NCBI GenBank assembly: GCA_963793485.1
Contig: CAWCAB010000003.1
Coordinates: forward strand, 672,139-736,138
DNA from: an uncultured Bacteroidota bacterium
GTDB taxonomy: Bacteria > Bacteroidota > Bacteroidia > Bacteroidales > B18-G4
Length of the DNA stretch: 64,000 nt
Direction of reading: 5' to 3'
The position numbers were made by a program, and so were the translations under genes. How positions within the stretch are numbered: the stretch's first letter is position 1; the number at the start of each line of letters is the position of its first letter. Below the pieces are notes generated by a model, which was not told the origin of the DNA, did no database searches, and saw nothing but the letters and a program-made list of their open reading frames with translations. Below, piece by piece: positions 273 to 51,598 of this stretch.

Positions 273-962
273 TTAAAATGTGATTCCAATGTTTATTGTA
301 AAATTAACTGTTAGTGCAAATTCAGTTTTTGTTGATTCTGAAGGCGGGATTACAGTTTCAAGTTGATTTAGATAAATACCTTTTTCATATACCACCATAT
401 CATGCCTTGTCCACAGCACACCAACTCCAAAATTGCTTTCAATAAAAAAACGTCTTATTAAATACCTGAATCCAAAATCGACAAAACCACCATAAATATT
501 TACATTATCATCCATTTTTCTATAAGATGCACTACTACCATAATTCTCCCAAACTGTCACTTGTGTAGAATCTATTTTTAGGTTTTTATAAACCATTTTT
601 AATGATAAAAATGTCTGAATATTACTATTTGTGATTTTCGATTTTAATATGTAAATATTTAGATGAGGAATAATATAATAACCTGAATAATATCCTAAAG
701 AACCATATGTTACTGGCCCGGCAATAAACCAATTACTATACTCTTTATTATTCGCATAAATATACCCTGGTGATATACCTATCCCAATTTTATCAAATTT
801 GTGTTCGTATGTAATCCCAATCTGTTGAAAGAAAATCATATTGATTGGATTCACAGACAGGTAGTTATTTCTTTCAATACCCGTTTCTTTCGATTGACTT
901 AACATAATTAATGGGAAACAACCAACTAAGAAGAAAAATAATATCAACTTTTTATTATTCAT
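273..962 (-). CDS. hypothetical secreted / outer-membrane beta-barrel-like protein
   Basis: 229-aa ORF with a signal peptide (MNNKKLILFFFLVGCFPLIMLSQ). Aromatic/Gly-rich beta-strand-like pattern, ending ..IGITF. No family recognised. Visibly more AT-rich than its neighbours. Confidence 0.45.
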   Translation of the reverse strand: MNNKKLILFFFLVGCFPLIMLSQSKETGIERNNYLSVNPINMIFFQQIGITYEHKFDKIGIGISPGYIYANNKEYSNWFIAGPVTYGSLGYYSGYYIIPHLNIYILKSKITNSNIQTFLSLKMVYKNLKIDSTQVTVWENYGSSASYRKMDDNVNIYGGFVDFGFRYLIRRFFIESNFGVGVLWTRHDMVVYEKGIYLNQLETVIPPSESTKTEFALTVNFTINIGITF

Positions 963-1093
963 TTTTGTATTGTGCGTAATTGGCTATTGGTCATCATTAT
1001 GCCACTTAAATGTTTATATAACAACAATCTATTGCGTTTAACACCCCACTGGGCATATAAACATCACAAATTAGCCTGGCGGTCGCCGCATAT

Positions 1094-2149
1094 TTATCTC
1101 TTCACCAGCTTCTTCACCTCAGTATCATTCCCGTTCTGGAACTGGACGAAGTACAGCCCGGCCGGGAGACCGCTAAGATCAATAGTCGCCTCTTTGCCTT
1201 GAAGCTCTGCTGATTTAACTACTTTCCCATTCATATCGATTACTTCGAATATCGAATATCGAGTAACGGGTATCGAATAACGAAGGTGCAACGCACCTTC
1301 GCAGGGGTTTGGAAACATTTTAAAGTCCTGCTGGGAGTTTTTTATCTGATCAATTGTAGTTAAGGAAACCGAGGGTACCAGAACTGGATCTCCTTCTGCT
1401 CCCATATGGTTAGCAAAGGAACTCATATCACGTATGTCATTGTACCCCGTGGTGCCAATTCCGAGGTCTTCGTAGGCATCAAACCTGTAATATGCTACGA
1501 CCCCGCTATCGGCAGTTTCATAATAAATTGCAGGGATTGGATTGGCCATGATCATGTTGATGTCGTTGACTTTGAGTGCTCTGTTCCACAGGCTTAATTC
1601 GTCCAAAGGACCTTCCAGTCTGCTACTGCCGCTTCCCCTGCCAATGTAGAGTTCAGTACAAACCTGCACATCCGGCCATGCTCCGAAATAGTACATAGGC
1701 ACGAACTCAACGGCACTGCCATCCACGTAAATAATGATACCATCTTCATCCTTATCAGCGACGATGGCAATATGATGCCATTGTCCATCGATATACTCAT
1801 TCACAGTGTACCCGCTACGCTCTGATACCCCTGCTGCCTGAATATGATTCACTCTGATTCTTTTCCCGGGTTGGGGGTCATGTGGATCGTCTTCAGCAAA
1901 GCCATAGCTATATTGAGTATATGGGTCACCATCGTATCTTCTCATAACAATGGGGGAGGACTGATCTGTATCGGTCGCCTTAATCCAGCAAGCCATCGTC
2001 CAACTGCCATCCGCCGGATTAAGAATTGCATTATGCGGGACTACACCATAATCGTCCTGGCCGTCGAAAGAAAGTGCTAATCCGAAATTCTGTCCGGATG
2101 ATGATAAAAACAGCATAAATACTGCTGAAAAAAGTGAAATCTTTTTCAT
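1094..2149 (-). CDS. LamG/concanavalin-A-like lectin domain protein with T9SS C-terminal sorting domain
   Basis: 351 aa with signal peptide MKKISLFSAVFMLFLSSSGQ. LamG-like pattern (LSFDGQDDYGVVPH..WTMACWIK..GQWHHIAIV..LYIGRGS..LDELSLWNRAL). CTD is FPNPCEGALHLRY..GLYFVQF..KKLVKR. Confidence 0.7.
   Translation of the reverse strand: MKKISLFSAVFMLFLSSSGQNFGLALSFDGQDDYGVVPHNAILNPADGSWTMACWIKATDTDQSSPIVMRRYDGDPYTQYSYGFAEDDPHDPQPGKRIRVNHIQAAGVSERSGYTVNEYIDGQWHHIAIVADKDEDGIIIYVDGSAVEFVPMYYFGAWPDVQVCTELYIGRGSGSSRLEGPLDELSLWNRALKVNDINMIMANPIPAIYYETADSGVVAYYRFDAYEDLGIGTTGYNDIRDMSSFANHMGAEGDPVLVPSVSLTTIDQIKNSQQDFKMFPNPCEGALHLRYSIPVTRYSIFEVIDMNGKVVKSAELQGKEATIDLSGLPAGLYFVQFQNGNDTEVKKLVKR
1227..1313. repeat. 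87-bp block identical to 2315-2401, containing an in-CDS heptamer array
   Basis: ccattcatatcgattacttcgaatatcgaatatcgagtaacgggtatcgaataacgaaggtgcaacgcaccttcgcaggggtttgga is read identically at both loci. Heptamers at 1235-1283 are ATCGATT ACTTCGA ATATCGA ATATCGA GTAACGG GTATCGA ATAACGA. Confidence 0.85.
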
Positions 2150-2178
2150 GATCTGTAATTTATAATGTTAGACAAGAT

Positions 2179-3168
2179 TTATTTGATTAGAAGCTTTTGT
2201 ACTTCATATGCCTTTTCAGACTGTATCTTGATAAAATACATCCCGGCAGGAAGATCACTGACATCTACAGTTTGATTTCCTTCCTCATGTAGCTGCATGG
2301 ATTTAGCCACTTTTCCATTCATATCGATTACTTCGAATATCGAATATCGAGTAACGGGTATCGAATAACGAAGGTGCAACGCACCTTCGCAGGGGTTTGG
2401 ATAGATACTAAAACTTGCTTCTTCATTTTCTTTTATAGAAGTTGCTTCCAAAGAAGCGATGAACAGGTGATATGAAGTGCTGTACTCCTCCTGCAGATTC
2501 ATGAAGGTCAACACCAGTGTTTTGATTGGGATGGTAGGTTTGAAATAGGCTGCAGGCGCCTCACATGAAGGCATGCCTCCAATTACCAGTGTATCAAATG
2601 TGTAACCGTCGGGTGTGTCTGATCCAAGCAATGCTGCATACTCAATATCCCATTTTGGGATGTCATTTGTCAGGTCACCCTGGTCGGCATCGAAAAGCTC
2701 GACAAGCCAGTTATTGATCACTGAGTTAGAAACAGGGTTGTCCCCAGCATCCGTGGCTGCAATAACAAGGTTTTCTACATCGATGTCGGTAACACAAAAG
2801 CCCCACAGGTTTGCCGGCGTAGCTTCGCTAAACGTAATGGTAGTAATTGCTCCGGAGGTAATTGTATTTCCCGCTGTTCCGGCACCGTTCGGGATGATCC
2901 GGGTCCTGAGATTTTCCTCGCTATCGGCCTGTCCGTAATCAGCTTCAAATTGACTGCCGTCGTCGAAGGTCTCGCTATCTTCGATTCCTACGGCCTCTGT
3001 CAGGGATCCAAATACCGACCAGGTGAAGTCGGGCAAGGCGGCATTTGTGAACGTGCCCGTTCCTGCATTGGAGTTAGTAATCTCAAAATTGGCGTATTCC
3101 TGTGCTTGCAGGCTGCAAACCAGTAGCAGGGCAACCAATATGCCCTGAAGTTTCACTAAGGTTTTCAT
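2179..3168 (-). CDS. hypothetical T9SS-secreted protein (C-terminal sorting domain)
   Basis: 329 aa with a signal peptide and no recognised catalytic domain. The CTD (IYPNPCEGALHLRYSIPVTRYSIFEVIDMNGKV..) is nearly identical to that of the neighbouring gene. Confidence 0.6.
   Translation of the reverse strand: MKTLVKLQGILVALLLVCSLQAQEYANFEITNSNAGTGTFTNAALPDFTWSVFGSLTEAVGIEDSETFDDGSQFEADYGQADSEENLRTRIIPNGAGTAGNTITSGAITTITFSEATPANLWGFCVTDIDVENLVIAATDAGDNPVSNSVINNWLVELFDADQGDLTNDIPKWDIEYAALLGSDTPDGYTFDTLVIGGMPSCEAPAAYFKPTIPIKTLVLTFMNLQEEYSTSYHLFIASLEATSIKENEEASFSIYPNPCEGALHLRYSIPVTRYSIFEVIDMNGKVAKSMQLHEEGNQTVDVSDLPAGMYFIKIQSEKAYEVQKLLIK
2315..2401. repeat. second copy of the 87-bp CTD-coding block
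   Basis: Identical by eye to 1227-1313. Confidence 0.85.
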
Positions 3169-3305
3169 CTTTAATGGTTTTTAGGTTGCAATAAAGATAA
3201 TAAAAACTTAGATGTGATGCAAGTAGATGTGTGTGTGAAGTGCCTAGAGTGCTTAGAGTTCTACTGTTTGCTATATACTGCTTAATTATTAGTGAATGAA
3301 CACTT

Positions 3306-4640
3306 TCATTCATCCCTCAGACAGCGTATATTGAAGCCGTAAATTTTATTGTCGCCATAGTCGCGGTCCACTATTTTATTTTTATAACTGAGGTAGCGGT
3401 TCCAGGCACTGGTGATATTGCCTTCTGTTGATGACCACCAGAGGCTATGCATGCCCTTGTAGCTGAATAAGCCATTGCTGTAGCGGTATCCGCCCGGAAG
3501 GGCTGAAAACCCAAACTCATCGGTGCCATGGCCGTTTTCTGTCCATCCGCTTGTTGTTTTCAGTTTCATTCCTGCATCGTACCCGCGATATCCATAGGAA
3601 TTCCATATTGGATGTCCAATTCTAAACAAACTATCCACTGCACCTTCCAGCACTTTCCATTCCTCGTCCCTGGGTATGTGCCAGCCGGGAGGACAAATAC
3701 CCTGGGAGCCCTGTTGTGTGGTATATTGCATCATTTCGTCCCACTGGTAAAGACCGCCATAGGTAATGCAATAATCCGGGTTATTGTAATAGCAGTATTT
3801 TTCCAAGATGCCGTTATCACTCATCTCATTCACGCCTGGTATCATTGTACCTACGTTCAGGTTTTCTTTCAGCCAGCACTGACTGAATATCTGTACCGTA
3901 TTGTAGGTTTGTCCTTCATAGGTCACTGTGGGCACTCCCGGGCAGGAGATATTACTGGCAAACTGGAAGGAATAGGATTCACTGGTTTCAGGGGTATCCA
4001 ATATTCCGGATTGGAGTGTATTCCTGTAGCCAATGTATAGCAGTTCATCACCTGAGGAAAATGAAAAGCCGTCGAAACTTTTCATTGCCTTATGTTGCGG
4101 GGATGAAGCTTTGCTTCCCAGATATTTGAGAGCACTCCCCCCTCTGGACTGAGAATTATTTTGAATGATCTTTATGCTGCTGTTCATTCCCCTCCATTGT
4201 GCAGTGAAATAAAAAAGATTTCCCGCTCCCGGGATAAAGCGGAATGAATGAGTTCCCTCATCCAGCATCATCTCCGATTTGACAATCACCCGGCCAAGGG
4301 CATCTGTGATGATCATGCTCAATCTGTCTTCTTCAGGCACATAAAGTGAAATGGTGGTCTGGTCTGACACAGGGTTTGGATAGTTTTGAAAAACTTCAAA
4401 TCCATCATCATCGATATTGCTTGCTTTGATTCCTACATGGCTGTCGAGCAGGAGCACGGTATCGGGCCAATACAATATGGTGTCGCCCCCCTGGGTGCGG
4501 TTCATGACCTTGATGCTGTCCAATTGAACATAAGAAGTATTGTCAATGGCAGTGAAGCTTAATTCCAGGTTTGATTTCTGATTGAAAGCACTTAATGAAA
4601 GTGCAATTGCCAGGGAAGAAAGTAAAATTTTTGATTTCAT
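3306..4640 (-). CDS. FISUMP (Fibrobacter succinogenes major paralogous) domain protein
   Basis: 444 aa with a signal peptide. The C-terminal half has the FISUMP pattern (CWLKENLN..YGGLYQW..CPPGWHIPRDEEWKVLE..LPGGYR..WWSST). There is an internal CTD-like module (FQNYPNPVSDQTTISLYV..). Confidence 0.75.
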   Translation of the reverse strand: MKSKILLSSLAIALSLSAFNQKSNLELSFTAIDNTSYVQLDSIKVMNRTQGGDTILYWPDTVLLLDSHVGIKASNIDDDGFEVFQNYPNPVSDQTTISLYVPEEDRLSMIITDALGRVIVKSEMMLDEGTHSFRFIPGAGNLFYFTAQWRGMNSSIKIIQNNSQSRGGSALKYLGSKASSPQHKAMKSFDGFSFSSGDELLYIGYRNTLQSGILDTPETSESYSFQFASNISCPGVPTVTYEGQTYNTVQIFSQCWLKENLNVGTMIPGVNEMSDNGILEKYCYYNNPDYCITYGGLYQWDEMMQYTTQQGSQGICPPGWHIPRDEEWKVLEGAVDSLFRIGHPIWNSYGYRGYDAGMKLKTTSGWTENGHGTDEFGFSALPGGYRYSNGLFSYKGMHSLWWSSTEGNITSAWNRYLSYKNKIVDRDYGDNKIYGFNIRCLRDE

Positions 4641-4652
4641 AATAACATTTCT

Positions 4653-6788
4653 TTATTGGACAACCAACTTTTTAACTGCCATTTTATTCCTGGCAGTGAT
4701 TCTTGCAAAGTATATCCCGGCAGGAAGATCGCTAAGATCGATGGCCGCTTCTTTGCCTTGAAGCTCAAGTGATTTAACTACATTCCCGGTCGTGTTAATC
4801 ACATCGAATATCGAATATCGAGTATCGGATATCGAATATCGAAGGTGCAAAGTACCTTTGCAGGGGTTTGGAAACAGCTCAAAATCAATTTTACTCCCCA
4901 CTGTAGGGTCTGCAACTCCAGTTTGTGTGATGGGTACAAAGAATACTGTGTCTTTGTTAAAGCTCGGAATTGCAAGGATGTTGTCTTGCTGGTTGTAATT
5001 TAGTCCGGTTGGTTCGCCCAGGGCTATAGCAACCACTGAATAATCACTGAAGTCGTTGGGGTATTTATGAACCCTTCCTCCTCCAACGAAGGTTGAAAAG
5101 TAGAAGTTTCCGTACTGATCGATGGTGATACCATCATACCGGCCTACGCTGTTGGTAGTCAGTGTGGTAACCTCTCCGCTTTCAATATCAACCCCAACGA
5201 TAGGGGCTGATGCAGCAAAAGCAGCGATCACTATTCTGTTATTGAATGGATCAAATACGCAATCCTGTGGCCAGTTTGGGATCCCGTTGCTTGCCAGTAG
5301 CTCCCAGGTTTCATTTGCAATGTCAACCTTCATAAGCCTTCCACCCGTATCGATAACGTAAAGAAATCCATTTCCGTCGGTTGTCATGCCGTCGAGGTTG
5401 TTCGTATTTGGTAAATGCATACTCAGGACCAACTCCTTGGTTAAGAGATGAAATCCAAGGAGCGTATCACCATCAGAAGTGTATAATACATTTCCGTCAA
5501 TGCACATTCCATAGAGGCCACCATAGCCGCTCAGCCAGTAGCTGTTGTGATTGAGTGTGTCGGTTTCAACAAGGCTGCCATCGCCCACATTGGCTACAAT
5601 ATAGCGATCAAGTGCCTGGTCATATACAACACATTCAGGTTTTTCGTAGATATTAGGTTGAAATAATTGATTTGCAAACCAGGAAGTTTGATTACTCATA
5701 TACCCGGTCGCAACCAGGTCGGGGTCGCCATCATTGTCAAAATCGCCATGCACGACGGAGAAAGTCTGTGTAAAAGTATCTTCAAAGTCATGTCTGGTGA
5801 AATCCTGGTTTCCGTCATTTTCCCACCAGGCGAGATGTTGTTCCCCCTGTCCGCCACCATAGAAGTCCTGATCTCCATCCTTATCAATATCTGTTACGTC
5901 AAACCACAATGCCCCGGCAAAGCTTCCCATATCATGTTTTGTAAAGTACTCGTTGCCATCATTCTCCCACCAGGCGATCTTGCTGCTCATACATGCAGCA
6001 CCGACAATATCCATGTCATCGTCACCATCCACATTTCTAATAAATACTGTATGTGCCATTGGAAAGTTGCCATCGATCTCATGCTCAGTCCAGTTCTGGT
6101 TTCCATCATTTTCCCACCAGTAAACTTCTCCATTCAGCTCTCCGCAGGCAAGGATATCGACATCACCATCTCCATCAATATCATCCCCATGAATAAATGG
6201 GCTCTGTTTAAAACGTGTGGAGATTACGTATTTGGTCCAGATTGTATCCGGCAAATTATTTTTCCACCAGGCAATCTCACTGTCGGCGCTGCTGTTGTCG
6301 AACTGAGAGCATAGTACATCCGGTTTGCCATCCAGGTCAACATCTTTTATGTCAACAGTATGTGCGCCCGGAAAGTTATCATCCACATAATGCTTGGTCC
6401 AGTTTTCATCCCCATCATTCTCAAACCATGTGATGGAATTGCCTTCCCAGGCTGCTGCCACGATATCAATTTCCCCATCAGCATTAAGGTCATGGGCAGC
6501 GACAGAGCGGGCCCGTTGCAGGTTTTCTGCCACAACATGTTCGATGAAATTGTGATATCCTGTATTTTCCCACCATACTACCTGCCCGTTATTCCCATTG
6601 CCTCCGGCAACGATATCGAAGAATCCATCCTTGTTGATATCACTTACATACACTTCGCACCCCTGTTCAAAACTGGTGCTTATAATGTGTTTCTCGAATG
6701 ATGTCGGCTGTGAAAAACTTTCTTTAATAAAGCTGACCATGGCTATGGCGATCAGCATCAGGATCATGAGAAGGAATCTGAAGTTCAT
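4653..6788 (-). CDS. FG-GAP/VCBS-repeat beta-propeller protein with second propeller-like region and T9SS CTD
   Basis: ORF 4653-6866, with the start moved to MNFRFLLMILMLIAIAMV (ATG at 6786-6788). Seven D-x-D/N-x-DG-x-x-D + WWEN(D/T)G repeats. CTD is FPNPCKGTLHLRYSISDTRYSIFDV..KKLVVQ. Confidence 0.75.
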   Translation of the reverse strand: MNFRFLLMILMLIAIAMVSFIKESFSQPTSFEKHIISTSFEQGCEVYVSDINKDGFFDIVAGGNGNNGQVVWWENTGYHNFIEHVVAENLQRARSVAAHDLNADGEIDIVAAAWEGNSITWFENDGDENWTKHYVDDNFPGAHTVDIKDVDLDGKPDVLCSQFDNSSADSEIAWWKNNLPDTIWTKYVISTRFKQSPFIHGDDIDGDGDVDILACGELNGEVYWWENDGNQNWTEHEIDGNFPMAHTVFIRNVDGDDDMDIVGAACMSSKIAWWENDGNEYFTKHDMGSFAGALWFDVTDIDKDGDQDFYGGGQGEQHLAWWENDGNQDFTRHDFEDTFTQTFSVVHGDFDNDGDPDLVATGYMSNQTSWFANQLFQPNIYEKPECVVYDQALDRYIVANVGDGSLVETDTLNHNSYWLSGYGGLYGMCIDGNVLYTSDGDTLLGFHLLTKELVLSMHLPNTNNLDGMTTDGNGFLYVIDTGGRLMKVDIANETWELLASNGIPNWPQDCVFDPFNNRIVIAAFAASAPIVGVDIESGEVTTLTTNSVGRYDGITIDQYGNFYFSTFVGGGRVHKYPNDFSDYSVVAIALGEPTGLNYNQQDNILAIPSFNKDTVFFVPITQTGVADPTVGSKIDFELFPNPCKGTLHLRYSISDTRYSIFDVINTTGNVVKSLELQGKEAAIDLSDLPAGIYFARITARNKMAVKKLVVQ
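4803..4844. repeat. in-CDS heptamer array (third, diverged CTD copy)
   Basis: ATCGAAT ATCGAAT ATCGAGT ATCGGAT ATCGAAT ATCGAAG, which is 42 nt or 14 codons (RYSISDTRYSIFDV on the minus strand). Confidence 0.85.
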
Positions 6789-7044
6789 GGTGTAAATTTT
6801 TAGATTGTTAATCAATAGCACGAATTTATACCAGTCAATAAATAAAAACACTGTGCATTTTACCATTGGTATGTCTCAAATTACCATTTACTGCCTTCTG
6901 CATACTGCCTGCCGCATACTGCTTACTATCTGTTTAACAGGCCCAACCGTTAACTTTTTCATCCCTGCCTTTAACTTGTTCCTCTATGAAAATTGTAACA
7001 GCTTTCATGGATTACAGTCTTTATACAAAACCAAGCTGGAAGTC

Positions 7045-9399
7045 ATGATCAAAAACTACCTACTTACCGCTTTACGCAGTTTCATGCGATACAAAGGATA
7101 CTCTTTAATAAATATAGCAGGACTAGCAATCGGAATGGCATGTTCTATTCTCATCATGGTTTGGGTGGCGCACGAGCTGAGTTACGACCGCTTCAACGAA
7201 AAGTCGGATCGCTTGTACCGGCTCGTGCAAACCCAATATTATAGTTCAGGCCCGCTTACGACAACTTGTATGCCAGGCCCGATAGCCAGGGATATGGTGG
7301 CTGACTACCCGGAAGTTGAAGATGCTTTTATGTACTACTTTGCACCCGGAGCAGTGGTGAGCTATGGCGACAAATACTTTACAGAAAATATTAGACTGGC
7401 GGACCCCGGCCTATTTCGCATGTTCGATTTCGAATTCATCAGCGGTGATCCCTCAACTGCACTGAATGACCTGCACTCTGTTGTGATAACAGAAGAGATG
7501 GTGGATAAATATTTCCAGGGAGAGGACCCCATGGGCAAGCTGTTAAGAATGAACGGTAAACATAATTTTAAAGTTACTGGAGTCCTGAAAGATATGCCGC
7601 AAAATTCTTCATTTCGATTTGACTTCTGTATTCCATTTATTTTCCTTGAGGAAATTGGGCAAAGCCTGGATAGATATGGTTGGAATTCGTTCTATTCCTA
7701 CATACAACTGGCAGAAGGAATAAGTGAGGATGCATTTGAAGAAAAGATGATAAAGCATATAGAGAATAAAAAGGGCGAGGAGGATGAGTCCAATATTGAT
7801 CTGTGGTTGCATCCGCTTGAAAAGATCCATCTATATGATGTCAGAGGAGGAGGGATGATTGAGCAGGTATATGTTTTATCAGCCATCGCAATATTTATTT
7901 TGCTTATTGCCTGCATTAACTTTATGAACCTTGCCACAGCACGTTCGGCGCGACGTGCAAGAGAAATCGGGCTTCGCAAAGTTGTTGGCGCCGGCAAAGG
8001 CAAGATCGTTATGCAGTTCCTTTTCGATTCCACACTCCTCTCGCTTATCTCTGTCATCTTTAGCGCAATCATTGTTCTTGCTGTATTGCCTGCATTTAAC
8101 AGGATGGCGGACAGTAAATTGAGCTTTGACCTGACAGATCCTGTGAACCTGCTGATACTCATTGGTGTTGGAGTCTTTACCGGCTTGTTGGCCGGAAGCT
8201 ATCCGGCCTTTTACCTTTCCAGCTTCAGCCCAATAAAAGTGCTGAGGATTTCAAACTCAGGTACCAAAGGATCCGCATTGTTTAGAAAAATTCTGGTTGT
8301 ATTTCAGTTTACCCTTTCAGTTATTTTGATCATCGCCACCATCGTTATCAGCCGGCAACTTAATTTTATGCAAAATAAGGACCTCGGAATGAATATGGAA
8401 AATGTGGTTTTTATTCAAATGGAAGGTGATGTGAGTAGTAACTTTGAGATAATGAAGAGCGAATTCATGAGTGATCCTTACATTACATCTGTGACGCGTG
8501 CCAGTTCACTACCGTTTTGGATGGGAAGCAATACAGGAGGCCTCGACTGGCAAGATAGGGATGTGGATAACGATATCCTTGTTGGTTTTGCCTTTACAGG
8601 TGATGATTATGAAGATGTACTGGATATACAGTTGCTTGAGGGCAGGTTTTTCGAAGCAAACATTGCTACTGATTCTGCAGCAGTGGTAATCAACAAAAGT
8701 TGCCAGGAAGCTATGAATATCAAAGACCCGATAGGGAAATGGATAAGCTGGGGAGATAGTGAGGAGGACCGTATGAAAATTATAGGTGTTACTGATGATT
8801 TTCATTTCCTTCCTCTCACATATGAGATATCACCTATGATGTTCATTTATAATACGGATCCGATGGGAGTATTGATGCTCAGAATGTCAGGTGATAATAT
8901 GAAACAAAGCATGGATCAGCTCGAAAAAGCATGGACAGGGATCAATCCGGGCTTTCCTTTTGAACCGAGTTTCCTCGATCAAGAATACCAGGAGGTATAT
9001 GAATCTGAAAACCGTCTTGGGGAGATCTTTAAATATTTTGCTTTTCTTGCCATCTTTATCAGTTGCCTGGGTTTGCTCGGGCTGGCATCCTTTATGGCAG
9101 AACAGCGGACCAGGGAAATCGGTATCAGGAAGACTTTCGGGGCCCCTGTATCTGCAATTATACTGATGATGTCGAAAGAATTTGCCCGCCTGTTGATCAT
9201 TGCCAATATCATTGCCATTCCCGTAGCCTGGTATTTTCTTAAAGACTGGCTGGATAACTATTCCTATTCCGCAAGTTTGAGTGCCGATATCTTTATTTAT
9301 GCTTTCCTGATCTCTCTTGCGATTGCCATGCTAACAATTAGCTATCAGGCCATCAAGGCAGCCCTGATGAACCCTGTGAATGCGATAAAATACGAATGA
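7045..9399 (+). CDS. ABC transporter permease, FtsX/MacB-like
   Basis: ORF 6805-9399, with the start moved to MIKNYLLTALRSFMRYKGYS (7045), the typical N-terminus of this family. Two FtsX modules (..ATARSARRAREIGLRKVVGA.., ..AEQRTREIGIRKTFGA..) flank large periplasmic domains. Confidence 0.85.
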   Translation: MIKNYLLTALRSFMRYKGYSLINIAGLAIGMACSILIMVWVAHELSYDRFNEKSDRLYRLVQTQYYSSGPLTTTCMPGPIARDMVADYPEVEDAFMYYFAPGAVVSYGDKYFTENIRLADPGLFRMFDFEFISGDPSTALNDLHSVVITEEMVDKYFQGEDPMGKLLRMNGKHNFKVTGVLKDMPQNSSFRFDFCIPFIFLEEIGQSLDRYGWNSFYSYIQLAEGISEDAFEEKMIKHIENKKGEEDESNIDLWLHPLEKIHLYDVRGGGMIEQVYVLSAIAIFILLIACINFMNLATARSARRAREIGLRKVVGAGKGKIVMQFLFDSTLLSLISVIFSAIIVLAVLPAFNRMADSKLSFDLTDPVNLLILIGVGVFTGLLAGSYPAFYLSSFSPIKVLRISNSGTKGSALFRKILVVFQFTLSVILIIATIVISRQLNFMQNKDLGMNMENVVFIQMEGDVSSNFEIMKSEFMSDPYITSVTRASSLPFWMGSNTGGLDWQDRDVDNDILVGFAFTGDDYEDVLDIQLLEGRFFEANIATDSAAVVINKSCQEAMNIKDPIGKWISWGDSEEDRMKIIGVTDDFHFLPLTYEISPMMFIYNTDPMGVLMLRMSGDNMKQSMDQLEKAWTGINPGFPFEPSFLDQEYQEVYESENRLGEIFKYFAFLAIFISCLGLLGLASFMAEQRTREIGIRKTFGAPVSAIILMMSKEFARLLIIANIIAIPVAWYFLKDWLDNYSYSASLSADIFIYAFLISLAIAMLTISYQAIKAALMNPVNAIKYE

Positions 9400-9403
9400 A
9401 GCG

Positions 9404-9543
9404 GAGTGTTGAGCGTTGGGTGTTGAGTGAAAATACCTTGAATCTGTGGCTCCTACGATTCGAAACCCTTATAGAGTACTACTGACTACTGCTACTGCCT
9501 ACTGGCTTTCATTTCGTTACTCGATATTCGTTACTCGATACTC
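9404..9543. repeat. three heptamer sub-arrays filling a convergent spacer
   Basis: GAGTGTT GAGCGTT GGGTGTT GAGTGAA at 9404-9431. ..ACTGACT ACTGCTA CTGCCTA.. at 9474-9507. GTTACTC GATATTC GTTACTC GATACTC at 9516-9543, which runs into the sulfatase stop. Confidence 0.8.
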
Positions 9544-10931
9544 CTGATTCTTTTACTATAGGCTTTCGCTTTATCAATCATCTGATCCCTGATAAAGGGG
9601 TATTCCAATGATACATCATTTTGTTCGCCAATATCTTCTTCAATATTGAATAACTGATAATGATCGAGGGGGCCAACGCCATAGGTGGCTTTAGTTGGCA
9701 GGCTCAGCTTCCAGTTTCCTTCACGATAGCTCATATGCAATCCCCGGGCTTCGTATCCTGAGAATTCAGTATGAGGTGCCAGTGCGTCTGCTGCCTGTGT
9801 CATTAATGGGTAGAGGTCTTTGCCGTCGATGGGCCTGTCGGAAGGGATCTCAGCACCTGCAAGCATTGCGAATGTTGTGAACAGGTCGAAGCCTGCTGTG
9901 ATGTATGGGCAAGTGCTGCCTGCAGGGATGGTTCCGGGCCATAACATGATGCATGCTACCCTTATTCCTCCATCATAACGCGACTGATATTTGCCCCCTC
10001 TCAGTACATGCCTGCGATTGGTATCCACTTTGGAAAAGTGACCATAACAGGCCTCCAGTTCAGGATATGGTACGATGAGCGGACCATTATCTGAACTGAA
10101 AACGATCAGGGTGTTTTCTGAAATGTCAAGTTCTCTTACAGTGCGGATAATAGCTCCCACAGACCGGTCCAGAAATTCAACGGCATCACCGAAGGGGCCT
10201 GCATCACTATAAGCTTCAAAGCCTTTAGGAACAAACCAGGGCGTATGAGTTTCAATATTTGAATACTGCAGGTAAAAAGGCTTGTTCTGTGCTGTCATCT
10301 CCCTTATATAGTCACAGCATATTTGCGTAAACAAAGACGGCAACTCAGCCAGTTCATTATTGTCCAGTTCGTCGATGATATCATAATCTTCTATAAGTGT
10401 GATGGGAGGGAAGCCCCTTGATCCTGTATTTGCCAGGCGTTCGGGTCCATGGTCGTTAGGATAAGGGATGCCAAAGAAATAATCAAAACCATGTTCTCCC
10501 GGCAGAAATTCGGGCAAATGTCCGAGGTGCCACTTGCCAATAAGAGCCGTGGCATATCCTTGCTCTTTAAGCAATTCTGTGATCGTTATTTCCAGCTCGG
10601 TATCCAACCCTATCTCTGAATCAGGGAAAAGGACCGGTAAGCCTGTGCCATTATTTACACGAGGTGCATAGCGGCCTGTCAGTATAGCTGCCCTGGTCGG
10701 CGTACAGGTCCCATGGGGTGCGTAAAAATCAGTGAACTTCATGCCTCCGGCAGCCATCCTGTCGAGGTTTGGTGTTTTTATGTCTTTCGATCCGAAACAA
10801 CTTAAGTCATCGTATCCCACATCATCGGCCAGGATATGAATGATATTTGGTTTGATGACAGCCTCCTGAGCAAAGGCACTGGAGAGTAAGAATGAGATGA
10901 TCAACAGGATAGAAACGTATCTGGAAAGCAT
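9531..10931 (-). CDS. sulfatase (arylsulfatase A family)
   Basis: 466 aa with a signal peptide. Metal-binding N-terminus HILADDVGYDD and active-site signature CTPTRAAILTGRY. Confidence 0.9.
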   Translation of the reverse strand: MLSRYVSILLIISFLLSSAFAQEAVIKPNIIHILADDVGYDDLSCFGSKDIKTPNLDRMAAGGMKFTDFYAPHGTCTPTRAAILTGRYAPRVNNGTGLPVLFPDSEIGLDTELEITITELLKEQGYATALIGKWHLGHLPEFLPGEHGFDYFFGIPYPNDHGPERLANTGSRGFPPITLIEDYDIIDELDNNELAELPSLFTQICCDYIREMTAQNKPFYLQYSNIETHTPWFVPKGFEAYSDAGPFGDAVEFLDRSVGAIIRTVRELDISENTLIVFSSDNGPLIVPYPELEACYGHFSKVDTNRRHVLRGGKYQSRYDGGIRVACIMLWPGTIPAGSTCPYITAGFDLFTTFAMLAGAEIPSDRPIDGKDLYPLMTQAADALAPHTEFSGYEARGLHMSYREGNWKLSLPTKATYGVGPLDHYQLFNIEEDIGEQNDVSLEYPFIRDQMIDKAKAYSKRIRSIE

Positions 10932-11682: not shown

Positions 11683-11711
11683 TGTTGGGCCCCTCGACTT
11701 CGCTCGGGACA
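11683..11711. repeat. REP-like element GTGTTGGGCCCCTCGACTTCGCTCGGGACA
   Basis: A near-identical copy lies at 39501-39530. Both sit 12-22 nt upstream of a minus-strand start codon. Confidence 0.7.
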
Positions 11712-11726
11712 AGTTGTTGTGTTATG

Positions 11727-13722: not shown

Positions 13723-13827
13723 TTTGGAGCTTGGAGCTTGGAACTTATCAACGCTCGGCTTATTGAAGTTTCATCCGTATAGATCCACCACCTACAGCCC
13801 AACGCCCAAAGCCTAACGCCAACGCCT
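13723..13827. repeat. heptamer tracts at both ends of a convergent spacer
   Basis: TTTGGAG CTTGGAG CTTGGAA at 13723-13743 and CAACGCC CAAAGCC TAACGCC AACGCCT at 13800-13827. The middle is degenerate. Confidence 0.7.
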
Positions 13828-17888: not shown

Positions 17889-18035
17889 GATGATGGGTTG
17901 TTGACACTGGTTGCTGGTTACTGGATACTGGACACTGGATCCTGGATCCTGGATCCTGGTTGCTCGTTACTCGTTACTCGTTACTCGATACTTGATACTC
18001 AATACTCAATACTCAATACTCAATACTCATTTCTC
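17889..18035. repeat. heptamer array, 21 units, forming the entire 147-nt spacer
   Basis: ATGATGG GTTGTTG ACACTGG TTGCTGG TTACTGG ATACTGG ACACTGG ATCCTGG x3 TTGCTCG TTACTCG x3 ATACTTG ATACTCA x5 TTTCTCT (phase 17890-18036). Confidence 0.9.
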
Positions 18036-18493: not shown

Positions 18494-20884
18494 ATGAGAG
18501 CAAGCCTTGCCATTATTGTTTTTAGCCTGATAATTCATGTTTCAAATGCCTTCGGACAGGAACTTCACCAAAATATCAGAGGTACTGTAACTGATAGAGA
18601 ATCAATGGTGCCTTTGCCCGGGGCAACAGTTATTGTTGAAGGTTCTGATCCCCTGATCGGGACTACAACTGCTCTGGATGGAACATTTTGCCTGCATGAT
18701 GTCCCCGTAGGCCGTCATACTATTGCTGTTTCATATATTGGTTATGAAACAATCATTATCCCAGAGATACTTGTTTCTTCTGCCAAGGAAACCATCCTGA
18801 CCTTTACCTTGAATGAAGAGATAAATACCCTGAATGAGGTTGTTGTAAAACCCACGAGGGAAAAGGGCAAACCGGTAAATGATATGGCCATGATCAGTGC
18901 CAGGTCTTTCACCGTGGAGGAAACCAAGCGCTACCCTGCAGCAATCAGTGACCCGGCCAGGATGGCCAAGAACTTTGCAGGTGTTACCGGTGGTGATGAT
19001 GCAGGCAATGAGATCATTATAAGAGGAAATTCACCTAGCAGCATGCTCTGGCGCCTGGAGGGGGTGGAGATACCAAGCCCCAACCATTTTTCTGAGGAGG
19101 GTTATTCAAGTGGATTTGTCAGCATTTTGAGTTCAAATCTGATCGACAACTCAGATTTTATTACAGGAGCTTTCCCGGCTGAATATGGTAATGCTCTTTC
19201 AGGTGTTTTCGATATCAACTTGCGTAAGGGAAATAATATGAAGCGGGAAACAGCGATACAGATCGGGGTGATGGGAACCGATATTGCAGTGGAAGGGCCT
19301 TTTAAGAAAGGATATGGCGGTTCTTACCTCCTGAACTACCGCTATTCCACTCTTGGCCTCATGGATAAAATGGGACTGATACCAGGCGCGGGGGGTATCC
19401 CCGAATACCAGGACCTCTCTTTCAAATTTAATCTGCCTGCCGGAAAAGCCGGAGTATTTTCGCTCTGGGGGATAGGAGGAAAAGCAAAATCTGTTGATAA
19501 AAATGAAAATGACCCAAGCGAGTGGGAAACATATTGGGATCGCATTGGCTTTGAATTCAAAACTGGCATGGGGGCCGCGGGCATCACCCATACCTGGTTC
19601 CCCGATGAAAAGTCATTTTTAAAGACAACCATCGCCCTGACAGGTGAAAAATCAGGGGAGAAACAAGAAATTTATACTGCACATGCCCAGGGGCCGGAAT
19701 ACACTCTTGGGGATCCCGATCCGTACTCAGACAGTGATTATAATAAAACTTCCATTAAGGCCAATGTTCTGTTTAATAGAAAAATAAATTCCCGTTTCTC
19801 CTTTCGCTCCGGTCTTACATACACAAACATGAAATACAATATGAAGGCCGAAGGTGTTGATGAAGAGGATGAGTTCCAGTGGAGGTCATGGATCAAGCAG
19901 GAAGGATCTACATGGATGATGCAGGGTTTTACATCGGCAAAGTTTCGCTTAAGCAGGAAAGTATCGGCAACCGGTGGATTGCACCTGCTGTATTTCGGAC
20001 TCAATAATGAATTTTCTGTTGAGCCACGCATGGCAATTAAAATGCAGTGCTCCCCAACCCAGTCAATCGGCATTGCCGCAGGCATTCATAGCCACCATGA
20101 TGCCCTGACCACCTATTTTATGCAGGTTCCTTTTGATGAAAATACCTACGTCACCCCAAACACCGACCTCAGCCTTAGAAAAGCACTTCATGTAGTACTA
20201 TCGCATGACCATATGCTATCGGAAGACCTGCGTTTACTTGTTGAAGTTTATTACCAGTATCTCTGGAACCTTCCGGTAGCATTTGATACGGCATCAACTT
20301 TTTCTTCTGTCAATGGTAACTGGGATGAGCATTATGTGGATACCCTCGTAAGCGATGGGATTGGCAGGAATTTTGGACTGGAAATGACCCTGGAGAAATT
20401 CTTCACTAGGCGTTTCTATTTTCTTGTCACTGGCTCTATGTTTGACTCCAAATACAGGGCCTCAAATGGAAAATGGTACAACACCCGATATAATGTTCAT
20501 TTTGCCACCAACATCGTAGGAGGCAAGGAATTTGCAGTTGGTAAGGACAAGAATAACTTTATTGGATTGAATCTGAAGCTAAGCTGGGCAGGAGGGATGC
20601 GCGACACCCCCATTGATCTTGAAAAATCAATCGAAGAGGGATCTGTGGTGATCAAGCAGGACGAAAGATATGAACTCAGCCATCAGGATTATTTCCGTAC
20701 CGACTTTGGCATAAGCTACCGTATGAACAGAAAGCGTGTGTCGCATACCTTCAGCCTTGATATACAGAATATTACAAATCACCAGAATGAGATGTATGAA
20801 TATTATGATCCTGAAAATTTCAATATTAAAACCGAATATCATATGGGGATACTGCCGGTGCTAAATTATAAAATAGAGTTCTAA
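18494..20884 (+). CDS. TonB-dependent receptor with CarboxypepD_reg-like N-domain
   Basis: 796 aa with a signal peptide. N-domain is IRGTVTD..PLPGATVIVEG..DGTFCLHDVPVGRHTIAVSYIGYE, followed by a plug and a long barrel ending ..LNYKIEF. Confidence 0.8.
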   Translation: MRASLAIIVFSLIIHVSNAFGQELHQNIRGTVTDRESMVPLPGATVIVEGSDPLIGTTTALDGTFCLHDVPVGRHTIAVSYIGYETIIIPEILVSSAKETILTFTLNEEINTLNEVVVKPTREKGKPVNDMAMISARSFTVEETKRYPAAISDPARMAKNFAGVTGGDDAGNEIIIRGNSPSSMLWRLEGVEIPSPNHFSEEGYSSGFVSILSSNLIDNSDFITGAFPAEYGNALSGVFDINLRKGNNMKRETAIQIGVMGTDIAVEGPFKKGYGGSYLLNYRYSTLGLMDKMGLIPGAGGIPEYQDLSFKFNLPAGKAGVFSLWGIGGKAKSVDKNENDPSEWETYWDRIGFEFKTGMGAAGITHTWFPDEKSFLKTTIALTGEKSGEKQEIYTAHAQGPEYTLGDPDPYSDSDYNKTSIKANVLFNRKINSRFSFRSGLTYTNMKYNMKAEGVDEEDEFQWRSWIKQEGSTWMMQGFTSAKFRLSRKVSATGGLHLLYFGLNNEFSVEPRMAIKMQCSPTQSIGIAAGIHSHHDALTTYFMQVPFDENTYVTPNTDLSLRKALHVVLSHDHMLSEDLRLLVEVYYQYLWNLPVAFDTASTFSSVNGNWDEHYVDTLVSDGIGRNFGLEMTLEKFFTRRFYFLVTGSMFDSKYRASNGKWYNTRYNVHFATNIVGGKEFAVGKDKNNFIGLNLKLSWAGGMRDTPIDLEKSIEEGSVVIKQDERYELSHQDYFRTDFGISYRMNRKRVSHTFSLDIQNITNHQNEMYEYYDPENFNIKTEYHMGILPVLNYKIEF

Positions 20885-20914: not shown

Positions 20915-20962
20915 ATTCATATTCTTATTCTTATTCTTATTCTTATTCTTATTCTTATTCCT
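20915..20962. repeat. hexanucleotide microsatellite (ATTCTT)6 with flanking variants
   Basis: ATTCAT, then ATTCTT x6 at 20921-20956, then ATTCCT. Confidence 0.9.
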
Positions 20963-25014: not shown

Positions 25015-25063
25015 GAAGTGTTGGATGTTGGGTGTTGGGTTTTGAGTGTTGAATGTTGGATTA
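25015..25063. repeat. heptamer array
   Basis: GAAGTGT TGGATGT TGGGTGT TGGGTTT TGAGTGT TGAATGT TGGATTA. Confidence 0.8.
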
Positions 25064-25110
25064 GTTTAAAGATAAACAATTAAAAATATTAATAGTTGTT
25101 CACTTTACTT

Positions 25111-25145
25111 CGGCACTAGCAACTAGGCACTAGCAACTATGCACT
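25111..25145. repeat. heptamer array (14-nt super-period)
   Basis: CGGCACT AGCAACT AGGCACT AGCAACT ATGCACT. It contains the response-regulator stop codon. Confidence 0.8.
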
Positions 25146-25905: not shown

Positions 25906-25923
25906 TTGTTTTTATTTTGATCA

Positions 25924-26028
25924 TGGATATTAGATCCTGGATACTGGATACTTGGCTCTGGGTTCTAGGTCTTGGGCCCTGGTATTTTGCCCCGCGCCTC
26001 ATGCCTCAAACCTCAAACCTCAAGCCTA
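25924..26028. repeat. heptamer array, 15 units, between histidine kinase and response regulator genes
   Basis: TGGATAT TAGATCC TGGATAC TGGATAC TTGGCTC TGGGTTC TAGGTCT TGGGCCC TGGTATT TTGCCCC GCGCCTC ATGCCTC AAACCTC AAACCTC AAGCCTA. Confidence 0.85.
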
Positions 26029-31580: not shown

Positions 31581-31650
31581 CATACTGTCTATTGTCAACT
31601 GCCTACTGCCTACTGTCTACTGTCAAGCAACCCAGCACCCAGCACCCAGC
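31581..31650. repeat. heptamer array, 10 units
   Basis: CATACTG TCTATTG TCAACTG CCTACTG CCTACTG TCTACTG TCAAGCA ACCCAGC ACCCAGC ACCCAGC. Confidence 0.85.
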
Positions 31651-31660
31651 AACAATTTAC

Positions 31661-35715: not shown

Positions 35716-35721
35716 TTAAAT

Positions 35722-35742
35722 ATCGAATATCGAGTACCGAAT
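35722..35742. repeat. short heptamer array
   Basis: ATCGAAT ATCGAGT ACCGAAT, the same words as in the T9SS CTD arrays. Confidence 0.7.
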
Positions 35743-39500: not shown

Positions 39501-39530
39501 GTGTTGGGGCCCTCGACTTCGCTCGGGACA
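39501..39530. repeat. REP-like element GTGTTGGGGCCCTCGACTTCGCTCGGGACA
   Basis: Second copy of 11683-11711. The only difference is GGGCCCC versus GGGGCCC. Confidence 0.7.
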
Positions 39531-39667: not shown

Positions 39668-39778
39668 GAGTAACGAGTAACGAGTAATGAATAACGAGGA
39701 AAGAAAACAGATTATGGCAAAAGGCATATGGAAAAAGGTATTTAACTCAACACTCAACACCCAACACTCAACACTATT
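39668..39778. repeat. two heptamer arrays
   Basis: GAGTAAC GAGTAAC GAGTAAT GAATAAC GAGGAAA at 39668-39702. AACTCAA CACTCAA CACCCAA CACTCAA CACTATT at 39744-39778, which contains the EamA stop. Confidence 0.8.
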
Positions 39779-51563: not shown

Positions 51564-51598
51564 GTTACTCGTTACTCGCTATTCGTTACTCGTTCCTT
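51564..51598. repeat. heptamer array between hypC and hypF
   Basis: GTTACTC GTTACTC GCTATTC GTTACTC GTTCCTT. It contains the hypF stop. Confidence 0.85.

Follow-up and report, generated by a model that had tools for sequence, protein, structure and literature searches.

A stretch of the C-terminal domain (CTD), the predicted T9SS secretion signal, of three neighbouring Bacteroidales genes is encoded by a 7-nt tandem DNA repeat of the kind found in the intergenic DNA around it. In related genomes, the stretch changed length and word as a unit. The reading considered likely is that the DNA repeat, not protein selection, sets that stretch of a conserved domain. No description of this was found in the literature searched. 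The window, i.e. the whole stretch of DNA that was analysed, was 64 kb long. Loci and contigs from other genomes are labelled L, and database proteins are labelled P.

Heptamer arrays in the CTD-coding sequences

The features are listed in Table 1. All three genes ended in Por_Secre_tail domains: PF18962 scored 48.8–54.7 bits (cut-off 27) over model positions 1–75, and TIGR04183 scored 45–53 bits (cut-off 23). The matches ran end to end without an insertion, and the domains ended at the stop codons. Signal peptides were inferred by reading the N-termini (MKKISLFSAVFMLFLSSSGQ and MKTLVKLQGILVALLLVCSLQAQ). In the AlphaFold2 model (pLDDT 92.1), the CTD had seven strands in a predicted Ig-like beta-sandwich. 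The best Foldseek hits were the NucA CTD in the translocon (8glk_D, TM 0.80) and the mirolase, PorZ, and RgpB CTDs.

Table 1. Coordinates of the features in the window
Position	Strand	Feature	Details
1094..2149	-	Gene 1: inferred signal peptide, Laminin_G_3 passenger, type A T9SS CTD (last ~75 aa)	PF13385 and PF18962 matches; TIGR04183 at 53 bits
2179..3168	-	Gene 2: inferred signal peptide, passenger with no family match, type A T9SS CTD	
4653..6788	-	Gene 3: FG-GAP/VCBS passenger, type A T9SS CTD	The 711-aa form starting at 6788 equals database protein P0151
1244..1285	-	In-frame heptamer array of CTD1, six units	Coding strand CTTCGTT ATTCGAT ACCCGTT ACTCGAT ATTCGAT ATTCGAA, giving L RYSIPVT RYSIFE
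2332..2373	-	In-frame heptamer array of CTD2	Identical to that of CTD1
4803..4844	-	In-frame heptamer array of CTD3, six units	Coding strand CTTCGAT ATTCGAT ATCCGAT ACTCGAT ATTCGAT ATTCGAT, giving L RYSISDT RYSIFD; modelled as the end of one strand, the loop YSISDTRY, and the next strand SIFDVI
1227..1313	-	87-bp tract read as gene conversion, copy 1	PNPCEGALHLRYSIPVTRYSIFEVIDMNGK
2315..2401	-	87-bp tract read as gene conversion, copy 2	
4786..4872	-	Homologue of the 87-bp block in CTD3	73/87 identical (84%)
9513..9540	+	Non-coding array TTCGTTA CTCGATA x2	Overlaps the stop and last codons of the sulfatase gene 9531-10931
35719..35742	-	Non-coding array TTCGGTA CTCGATA TTCGATA	3 nt upstream of the ATG of 35215-35715
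17906..18029	+	Largest intergenic heptamer array	Words grade from ACTGGAT through CCTGGAT, GCTCGTT, ACTCGTT, ACTCGAT, and ACTTGAT to ACTCAAT; contains the CTD words CTCGTTA and CTCGATA
51564..51594	+	Array GTTACTC GTTACTC GCTATTC GTTACTC, same word family	Overlaps the stop of hypF (51586-53832)
39668..39698	-	Array whose minus strand reads CTCGTTA-type words	
1281..1301	-	Tentative small hairpin CGAAGGTGC-GTT-GCACCTTCG at the 5' edge of the array	Same sequence at 2369-2389 in CTD2

The observation made in the first-pass annotation was confirmed. It had noted by eye that two adjacent, otherwise unrelated genes share an identical 87-bp block. The blocks were identical at 87/87 positions, with identity falling to background on both sides. 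In the rest of the two CTDs identity was 80/133 (60%), so a run of 87 has P of about 1e-17. The passenger domains were unrelated (BLASTP E=12). The third, diverged copy was real, although its limits had been given as about 4791-4875. The heptamers at 4803-4844 and the minus-strand translation RYSI(P/S)(V/D)TRYSIF(E/D)V had been given correctly. Each array held six in-frame heptamers (42 nt, 14 codons), and TRF called period 7 with 5.7–5.9 copies at all three sites.

To test whether the periodicity follows from the peptide, lag-7 identity was calculated for the 48 nt from the Leu codon. It was 0.66 (CTD1) and 0.76 (CTD3). With the same peptide and resampled synonymous codons, it averaged 0.36–0.39 and never exceeded 0.71 in 20,000 trials (p<5e-5). 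Periodicity beyond the peptide was also obtained for eight further array segments from six other loci, L001, L002, L005, L025, L051, and L078 (p from <5e-5 to 0.002). Control CTDs were at background, and two CTD-like segments in the window that lack the motif scored 0.22–0.24. The arrays used codons that are minor in this genome throughout: CGA is 9% of Arg codons, TCG 11% of Ser codons, and ATA 23% of Ile codons.

A rival explanation is that the periodicity is a by-product of a conserved 7-residue protein repeat (RYSI...RYSI) selected for beta-strand formation, the DNA repeat having no independent existence. The peptide motif is widespread in CTDs, the residues lie in canonical strands and a loop of a well-folded model, and part of the lag-7 signal survived synonymous resampling (0.36–0.55 against 0.2 in controls). 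However, a 7-aa repeat predicts 21-nt periodicity, not 7-nt, and observed lag-7 exceeded all or nearly all of the 20,000 resamplings. Minor codons were used uniformly, orthologues differed by the same nucleotide change in most units, which changes different residues in each frame, and different words gave different peptides at the same site. This explanation is considered very unlikely.

The 87-bp tract was sharply bounded, centred on the microsatellite-like array, began exactly where CTD homology begins, and lay in paralogues 1.1 kb apart. The two CTDs formed a mosaic: in the 3' remainder, CTD1 was closer to CTD3 (69%) than to CTD2 (60%). An assembly artefact is unlikely, as the tract is shorter than typical reads and flanked by unique sequence, and the same architecture recurs in independent assemblies.

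Arrays in other CTDs and orthologues

The first-pass annotation had named as its refutation unrelated CTDs with the same peptide encoded by non-repetitive DNA. Unrelated Bacteroidales CTDs did carry RY.I..RY.I peptides (about 40 of the best 150 cluster representatives), but all seven whose DNA was fetched (L001, L002, L025, L084, L090, L091, and L092) were also encoded by heptamer arrays, often with different words, and the finding was not refuted. The three genes are not a local event but the local instance of an old, widespread CTD subclass with a conserved six-unit layout. The word N-GATA-NN read in three frames gives R-Y-x-I-x-D-x. From the genetic code, (AGATATC)n should encode RYQISDI, and the DNA of P0061 reads ATATCAG x5. 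The word of P0158 was predicted from its peptide and confirmed. At least two other word classes occupied the same CTD position, ELRVTSY from (GAGTTAC)n and FQITSTK. A word-indexed homologue search with the 76-aa CTD found nothing, and a search with a CTD alignment narrower than one of 26 sequences returned only two genome loci.

Orthologues in syntenic contigs were compared with CTD3 in the same register. L090 read ...ATTCGAA ATTCGAA ACTCGAA, L091 read CTCAGAT ATCAGAT ATCAGAA AGCAGAA ATCAGAA ATCAGAA, and L087 had 9 units. CTD3 and L091 differed at heptamer positions 3, 4, and 7 in 5, 6, and 4 of 6 units, respectively, and never at positions 1, 5, and 6. Within-array unit identity was 0.83–0.86, against 0.62 between same-position units. 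Concerted change could partly be whole-CTD replacement rather than within-array homogenisation. Orthologues in the FG-GAP series (P0151-P0170) at 64% identity or less lacked the motif, judged from the peptide only. Two CTDs on contig L084 shared the words GCCGGAT/ACCAGAT.

Length polymorphism was found within 90%-identity clusters, whose related members are labelled Bacteroidales bacterium MAGs. P0152 has 724 aa and P0272 has 717. P0158 has 715 aa and P0283 has 722, and the partial members P0284 and P0286 carry the same longer array. The 7-aa difference (21 nt, three units) always lay inside the array. P0122 has 9 units.

Simple-sequence contingency loci, in which coding repeats of 4, 5, or 7 nt vary in phase by slipped-strand mispairing, likewise have a non-triplet unit within an ORF. 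The CTD array could be such a locus, with gain or loss of one or two heptamers switching secretion of one cargo off and on. Any change of 1 or 2 units would give a stop within 12 codons and remove the last 38–52 residues, including motifs D and E, and unit number does change between near-identical orthologues. On the other hand, all variants seen were in frame (plus or minus three units), in a small sample of called proteins only, in which frameshifted alleles could have been missed. The tracts were interrupted (78–88% TRF matches, at most 2–3 identical adjacent units), six units were conserved across very divergent CTDs, and three contigs from different samples carried the same P0152 allele. 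A cargo stranded in the periplasm also seems costly. This reading is unlikely.

Relation to intergenic heptamer arrays

Period 7 gave 14 regions and 726 nt in the window, against 0–1 regions for every other period from 4 to 12. Of 31 TRF arrays, 26 were non-coding in a window that is 90% coding, amounting to about 15% of its non-coding DNA, and 3 were the CTDs. The remaining two were one in a doubtful 5' ORF extension (6889-6927) and one two-copy match inside a gene (45522-45536). The non-coding copies of the CTD words pointed out in the first-pass annotation were real and not chance: the exact 18-mer TACTCGATATTCGATATT occurred in all three CTDs and at 35719-35736, and the exact 16-mer CGTTACTCGATATTCG in CTD1, CTD2, and at 9515-9530, with no such match in 100 shuffles. 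The single word ATCGAAT was not over-represented (15 observed, 12.4 expected), and the signal is in the tandem arrangement. In a sample of 80 CTD loci chosen only by SDLPAGxYF, 4 had array CTDs. Extra non-coding arrays occurred in 2 of those 4 (12.5 kb) against 1 of 76 (413 kb; Fisher p=0.006).

The interpretation in the first-pass annotation was only partly supported. It had proposed either that an intergenic array was captured into the CTD and spread by gene conversion or that CTD-coding DNA seeded the arrays. A DNA-level tandem repeat of the same class and word family as the intergenic arrays was supported, as was conversion between CTDs, read from the mosaic. A single capture into a CTD is not shown by these data. 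Seeding by CTD DNA is very unlikely. The shared 16–18-mers and an inverted pair of TTCGATA arrays right after a CTD gene in L003 speak for it. However, intergenic arrays used many word families that cannot be coding (e.g. TAGGCAC has stops on both strands). Most used other words, several with stops in every frame, and they outnumbered the CTD arrays 26 to 3. Published heptamer arrays occur outside the Bacteroidota, in Beggiatoaceae and cyanobacteria (PMC4679880), and long non-genic RYSIFDI-type arrays occur in other Bacteroidota, for example Pseudochryseolinea flava.

The closest intergenic elements are the TAACTGA direct repeats of Beggiatoaceae, cyanobacteria, and five Bacteroidetes (MacGregor 2015, PMC4679880) and the cyanobacterial STRR heptamers. 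These also have 7-nt units at many loci per genome, mostly intergenic, in several word families and sometimes at gene ends, and occasional in-ORF copies give 7-residue peptide repeats (LSVISYQ) at protein termini. No TAACTGA repeats occurred in the window, with no match to TAACTGATAACTGA with up to 2 mismatches. Its words are different, so the arrays are the same kind of element but not that named family. In addition, the in-ORF copies here sit at one fixed place inside a defined, conserved, folded domain, with a conserved count of six units, in many lineages.

The arrays could instead be functional nucleic-acid elements, for example binding sites for a repeat-binding protein acting on DNA or mRNA, the CTD copies being kept periodic by selection on that function, such as co-regulation of T9SS cargo or of the downstream gene. 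Periodicity was retained at synonymous sites over long divergence, across clusters below 50% identity, and a limited vocabulary of word families was shared across genomes. Arrays were enriched at stop codons (13 of 26 within 17 nt against 7.6 expected, p about 0.005), and one lay just before a start codon, as reported for TAACTGA repeats, where a translational role was proposed (PMC4679880). A small hairpin often precedes the CTD array. The MFE of the 36 nt from PNP was −15.9 kcal/mol, and array CTDs averaged −6.1 against −3.2 for 67 ordinary CTDs (Mann-Whitney p=1.6e-4). Its covariation was weak (63% of cells pair, one pair shows GC/AU/GU) and may reflect the conserved Gly and His-Leu codons. 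Orientation relative to transcription was mixed (11727 and 51564 are antisense to their neighbours), and words differed widely between arrays. Orthologous intergenic sites gained and lost arrays, which were present in the window and in L087 but absent from the 23-nt spacer of L090. Rfam gave only a tRNA, and sigma-70 promoter and intrinsic-terminator scans of 900-7100 were at shuffle level. Inverted partner arrays, as seen in L003 and L005, were absent around the window's CTDs and its large intergenic arrays, and a hairpin between arrays is therefore not general. This explanation is doubtful. It is likewise doubtful, though not excluded, that the arrays form a functional, genome-wide element class with a shared vocabulary, a preference for gene 3' ends, and an adjacent hairpin, whose conserved presence inside T9SS CTDs couples each cargo's secretion signal to repeat dynamics or to a repeat-binding factor, either as a per-cargo on/off switch through 1–2 unit slippage or as post-transcriptional co-regulation of T9SS cargo.

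Interpretation and significance

In the favoured explanation, the segment between the PNP motif and motif B is encoded by a degenerate heptanucleotide array. Seven is not a multiple of three, so each word is read in all three frames, three units give one 7-residue peptide repeat, and the peptide motif is a read-out of the DNA repeat, not the reverse. The array would be a coding member of the heptamer-satellite population. Units would be gained and lost, with only multiples of three surviving because any other change truncates the CTD, substitutions would spread over several or all units, and tracts would be copied between paralogous CTDs. The analysis itself demonstrates the DNA-level periodicity, the shared words, the three-unit polymorphism, the concerted changes, and the mosaic, whereas slippage and ectopic conversion are inferred as the mechanisms, as is T9SS-dependent secretion of the products. 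It is also inferred that the array persists because this dispensable N-terminal part of the CTD is structurally permissive and discarded after secretion, needing no function of its own. In Prevotella intermedia, the stretch from the cleavage site to motif B is 19–30 aa in long CTDs and only 6–11 aa in functional short CTDs, and the top sheet contributes little to PorV binding (PMC11969387). Slippage itself was not observed, and imperfect arrays lower slippage in known systems. The retained synonymous periodicity could reflect selection on the nucleic acid rather than neutral homogenisation. Mere tolerance might also predict arrays in other weakly constrained coding DNA, but CTD arrays were the only confirmed coding arrays seen in the 64 kb plus flanks surveyed.

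In this type A CTD, about 14 residues are dictated by a 7-nt DNA satellite, the motif varying with the word and the length in 7-residue steps. This is a clear natural case in which a non-triplet satellite, read in all three frames, writes part of a conserved, folded protein domain and keeps rewriting it. It explains a puzzling low-complexity motif class in many Bacteroidales T9SS signals (RY.I.D.RY.I, ELRVTSYELRVT, and GKRQKAEGRRQ). Such motifs are not evidence of protein-level selection and can mislead profile building and homology inference. The finding identifies CTD segments that tolerate almost any sequence, which is useful for engineering T9SS secretion tags, and ties the little-studied heptamer repeats of Bacteroidota to a tractable coding read-out in which repeat dynamics can be measured.

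Heptamer arrays in three T9SS sorting domains

Three minus-strand genes were found to end in type A T9SS sorting domains (CTDs), with Pfam PF18962 and TIGR04183 matching over the whole model and above the cut-offs. Two blocks, one in each of the first two genes, were identical at 87/87 positions, and identity fell to background on both sides, although the passenger parts are unrelated. The third CTD contained a copy with 73/87 identical positions. Each block contained six heptamers. On the coding strand, the array of CTD3 reads CTTCGAT ATTCGAT ATCCGAT ACTCGAT ATTCGAT ATTCGAT, which translates as L-RYSISDT-RYSIFD. The exact 18-mer TACTCGATATTCGATATT was shared by the three CTDs and one non-coding site, and an exact 16-mer was shared with a second site, neither being expected by chance. 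The first-pass annotation had described the identical blocks, the diverged third copy, the in-frame heptamers, and the non-coding occurrences of the same words, and this description was correct in all particulars. The locations of all features are listed in the table.

Locations of the sorting domains, heptamer arrays, and other features in the window and in related loci
Feature	Coordinates	Remarks
Genes 1, 2, and 3, ending in type A T9SS CTDs	1094-2149, 2179-3168, 4653-6788 (minus strand)	Gene 3 encodes an FG-GAP protein
87-bp blocks of CTD1 and CTD2	1227-1313, 2315-2401	87/87 identical
Copy of the block in CTD3	4786-4872	73/87 identical
Six-heptamer arrays of CTD1, CTD2, and CTD3	1244-1285, 2332-2373, 4803-4844	In frame
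Hairpin 5' of the CTD array	1281-1301, 2369-2389	Also at homologous positions in L002, L086, L090, L092, and L025
Non-coding site with the shared 18-mer	35719-35736	
Non-coding site with the shared 16-mer	9515-9530	
Word family [CT]TCG[AT]TA outside the CTDs	9513, 17950-18000, 35719, 39668, 51564	
Examples of non-CTD period-7 arrays	9404-9540, 13724-13826, 17906-18029, 25019-26027, 31583-31651, 32578-32648, 39531-39775, 50028-50093	
Word family GTTGRRT	9404, 25019, 39531, 39745	
Word family CTACTGN/ACTGTCA	9478, 15294, 31583	
Word family TAGGCAC	50028, 25112	
Word family GCCYAAC	13797, 23131	Also at 3845 in L091
Word family NCTGGAT	17906, 25924, 32578	
Short element GTCCCGAGCGAAGTCGAGGGGCC	11686-11712 and 39505-39530 (minus strand)	Near copy in L086 at about 975-1000
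Tandem arrays of a 9-nt unit	43264-43322, 63554-63590	ACTCTAGGC / ACTTTAGGC
Hexamer array	20915-20960	ATTCTT x7.7, nearly perfect, just after the end of gene 18494-20884
FISUMP-domain protein	3306-4640 (minus strand)	Internal, partial Por_Secre_tail-like segment (aa 87-123)
DJ-1/PfpI plus CTD	21266-22216 (plus strand)	Lag-7 identity 0.24
hypF and two HdrA-like genes	51586-59607	
Paired arrays of L003	6244-6391	Two 63-nt arms, 22 nt apart
Three CTD arrays of L078	3854-4093	GAGTTAC x6, AGGCAGA x5, ATTCTCC x4
Two CTD arrays of L005	3086-3346	56-nt arms, 75% complementary

To determine whether the periodicity belongs to the DNA or to the protein, each peptide was kept and synonymous codons were resampled from the window's own usage. 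A 7-residue protein repeat would give a 21-nt period and not a 7-nt one. In the resampled sequences, lag-7 identity averaged 0.36-0.39 and never reached the observed 0.66 and 0.76 in 20,000 trials, while two CTD-like segments in the window without the motif were at background (0.22-0.24). The arrays use CGA, TCG, and ATA throughout, which account for 9%, 11%, and 23% of the Arg, Ser, and Ile codons in this genome. The logic of the motif follows from the genetic code: a word N-GATA-NN read in three frames gives R, Y, x, I, x, D, x, and this matches the conserved columns of the protein alignment.

Outside the block, the relationships among the three CTDs differ from those within it. In the block, CTD1 equals CTD2, and both are 84% identical to CTD3, whereas in the remaining 133 aligned positions CTD1 is closest to CTD3 (69%) and CTD1-CTD2 identity is 60%. 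This mosaic is what a short gene-conversion tract between genes 1.1 kb apart would leave. The tract starts where CTD homology starts and is centred on the array. Two convergent CTDs on another contig, L084, likewise share a genome-specific word pair.

Not all CTDs of a genome carry the array. A fourth T9SS cargo in the window, DJ-1/PfpI plus CTD, has an ordinary, non-periodic CTD, and the same holds in the loci L005, L078, and L086. The partial Por_Secre_tail-like segment of the FISUMP-domain protein, which was below the cut-off and lies in the middle of the protein rather than at its end, has no heptamer array.

Array CTDs in other genomes and in orthologues of gene 3

A profile of the three CTDs was searched against 1.84 billion cluster representatives. 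About 40 of the best 150 hits are single-CTD proteins with the same motif class, for example LRYSISDIRYSIFEL, LRYQISDIRYQISDL, and LRYLIHDTRYLISDL, and one has three units, RYRMPDT RCRMPDT RCQIVEL. The peptide is therefore widespread. The same peptide encoded by non-repetitive DNA in unrelated CTDs had been set beforehand as the observation that would speak against a DNA-level repeat, but the DNA of every motif-bearing CTD that could be fetched was also heptamer-periodic, often with another word. The database protein P0061 is encoded by ATATCAG x5, as predicted beforehand from the code; L002, a locus of a Bacteroidales MAG, has TTCGATA words; the metagenome locus L025 reads CTTCGAT ACCAGAT AAAAGAT AAAGGAT ATCTGAT ATCTGAT; and the protein P0122 has nine units of GCCGGAT/ACCAGAT.

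A sample that could not be biased by the motif was also drawn, consisting of 80 metagenome loci selected only by SDLPAGxYF in the C-terminal half. About 70 ordinary CTDs had lag-7 identity of 0.14-0.32, and four loci had 0.57-0.61. Of these four, L025 belongs to the RY class, L051 and L078 carry ELRVTSYELQVTG from (GAGTTAC)n, and L005 carries FQITSTKHQTNSKLQIQK. The three different in-frame arrays of L078 together fill most of the CTD up to the conserved SDLPAG segment, with AGGCAGA encoding GKRQKAEGRRQ and ATTCTCC encoding ILHSPFSILHS. The two arrays in the L005 CTD are inverted complements of each other, one on each side of motif B. The peptide is a by-product of the DNA repeat, and the opposite reading, in which the periodicity follows from a conserved protein motif, was not supported by these sequences.

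Gene 3 has a graded series of orthologues on syntenic contigs with the gene order sulfatase, FtsX permease, FG-GAP protein. The arrays were compared with that of CTD3 in the same register after the His codon. The array on contig L090 (73% identity) reads CTTCGAT ATTTGAT ATCCGAT ATTCGAA ATTCGAA ACTCGAA, and that on L091 (68%) reads CTCAGAT ATCAGAT ATCAGAA AGCAGAA ATCAGAA ATCAGAA. Contig L087 (80%) has nine units of ACTCGAG/ACTTGAG, and L092 (70%) has a partly decayed array. The arrays of CTD3 and L091 differ at heptamer positions 3, 4, and 7 in 5, 6, and 4 of six units, respectively, and never at positions 1, 5, and 6. Units are 0.83-0.86 alike within an array but 0.62 alike between positional counterparts, indicating concerted evolution or array replacement. 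More distant orthologues (64% identity or less) have ordinary, non-repeat sequence at this place, as judged from the peptide only.

Inside 90%-identity clusters, proteins differ by exactly seven residues within the array. P0152 has 724 aa and P0272 has 717, while P0158 has 715 aa and P0283 has 722, and the partial members P0284 and P0286 carry the same longer array. Any change of one or two units would put a stop within 12 codons and remove the last 38-52 residues, which explains why only multiples of three are seen.

Heptamer arrays outside the sorting domains

Period 7 is unique in the window, with 14 regions and 726 nt at 80% or more self-match, against 0-1 regions for any other period from 4 to 12. 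Of 31 TRF period-7 arrays, 26 lie in the 10% of the window that is non-coding, where they comprise about 965 nt, roughly 15% of the non-coding DNA. Three are the CTD arrays, one lies in a doubtful 5' ORF extension, and one is a two-copy match. Of the 26 arrays, 13 lie within −16 to +17 nt of a stop codon (7.6 expected, p about 0.005), and several supply the stop and last codons, while only one lies near a start codon (4.1 expected).

The arrays fall into a few recurrent word families, and within long arrays the word drifts stepwise from unit to unit. These families also appear in related genomes: GCCYAAC in L091, CAGTAGG/GGCAGAA in L002 and L078, and CTCGTTA in L090. The word family of the window's CTDs, [CT]TCG[AT]TA, recurs both in non-CTD arrays of the window and in intergenic arrays of the orthologous genome L090 and of L003, a locus of an uncultured Bacteroidetes MAG. 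In L003, two arms built from TTCGATA-type heptamers lie directly after the stop of an ordinary CTD gene and are 95% complementary, giving a long hairpin made of the same words as the window's CTD arrays. In the sample of 80 loci, non-coding arrays accompany array CTDs (2 of 4 loci against 1 of 76, p = 0.006).

Other short repeats were also observed. The element GTCCCGAGCGAAGTCGAGGGGCC lies about 40 nt upstream of two start codons and next to heptamer arrays, and a near copy (TCCCGAGCGGAGCCGAGGGGC) interrupts, in frame, the CTD array of the protein P0132, giving ...SDINVIPSGAEGRYSIF... The word of the 9-nt tandem arrays, found at two distant sites, resembles the TAGGCAC heptamer family. Regarding the organism itself, hypF and two HdrA-like genes, together with mtaB and a DASS symporter elsewhere in the window, suggest an anaerobic Bacteroidales-type organism.

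Intergenic heptamer repeats have been described in Beggiatoaceae, cyanobacteria, and a few Bacteroidetes, with occasional in-ORF copies at protein termini (PMC4679880), but the word TAACTGA itself is absent from the window. Literature searches for heptamer or tandem repeats in T9SS CTDs found nothing relevant in the papers searched. Coding non-triplet repeats and intergenic heptamer satellites are both known kinds of element, and what appears to be new is a satellite at a fixed position inside a conserved folded domain, with a conserved count of six units across many lineages, peptide motifs that depend on the word, and documented three-unit polymorphism and concerted evolution (or array replacement).

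Position in the domain and interpretation

The profile matches show no insertion. The AlphaFold2 model (pLDDT 92) places the array-encoded residues at the end of one strand, a loop, and the next strand, just before motif B, and the predicted fold matches solved CTDs. Published work on Prevotella intermedia shows two variable spacers: that from the cleavage site to motif B is 19-30 aa in long CTDs and 6-11 aa in functional short CTDs, and that from motif B to motif D is 10-17 aa against 1-6 aa. PorV is modelled to contact mainly motifs B, D, and E (PMC11969387). The arrays of the window occupy the first spacer, while the extra arrays of L078 and L005 lie C-terminal to motif B and ahead of the SDLPAG segment, which appears to correspond to the second spacer.

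Three features are not explained by a purely neutral model: the long-term retention of 7-nt periodicity; the vocabulary shared between genomes, together with the preference of intergenic arrays for stop codons; and a small hairpin that often precedes the CTD array. This tentative 6-10 bp hairpin lies immediately 5' of the array and spans the Gly...His-Leu codons, with GGT...CAC changed to GAT...CAT in three orthologues. Array CTDs fold more stably here than 67 ordinary CTDs (p = 1.6e-4), although the covariation evidence is weak. These features keep alive a functional reading, either a repeat-binding factor or phase variation, but each of the two is considered unlikely.

The interpretation offered in the first-pass annotation was supported only in part. 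It had proposed that an intergenic array was captured into the CTD and spread by gene conversion, or that CTD-coding DNA seeded the arrays. Seeding of intergenic arrays from CTDs is unlikely, whereas the CTD arrays may derive from intergenic ones or may have been born independently in situ.

The best-supported model is a heptanucleotide satellite living in a permissive part of a secretion signal, constrained to stop-free words and to multiples of three units, and homogenised by slippage and ectopic conversion. The periodicity, the mosaic, and the seven-residue length differences were read directly from the sequences, while slippage and conversion are inferred from their products and T9SS-dependent secretion is inferred from the domain matches. 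The CTD is removed after secretion by T9SS sortase processing, so its sequence in these spacers matters little for the mature protein.
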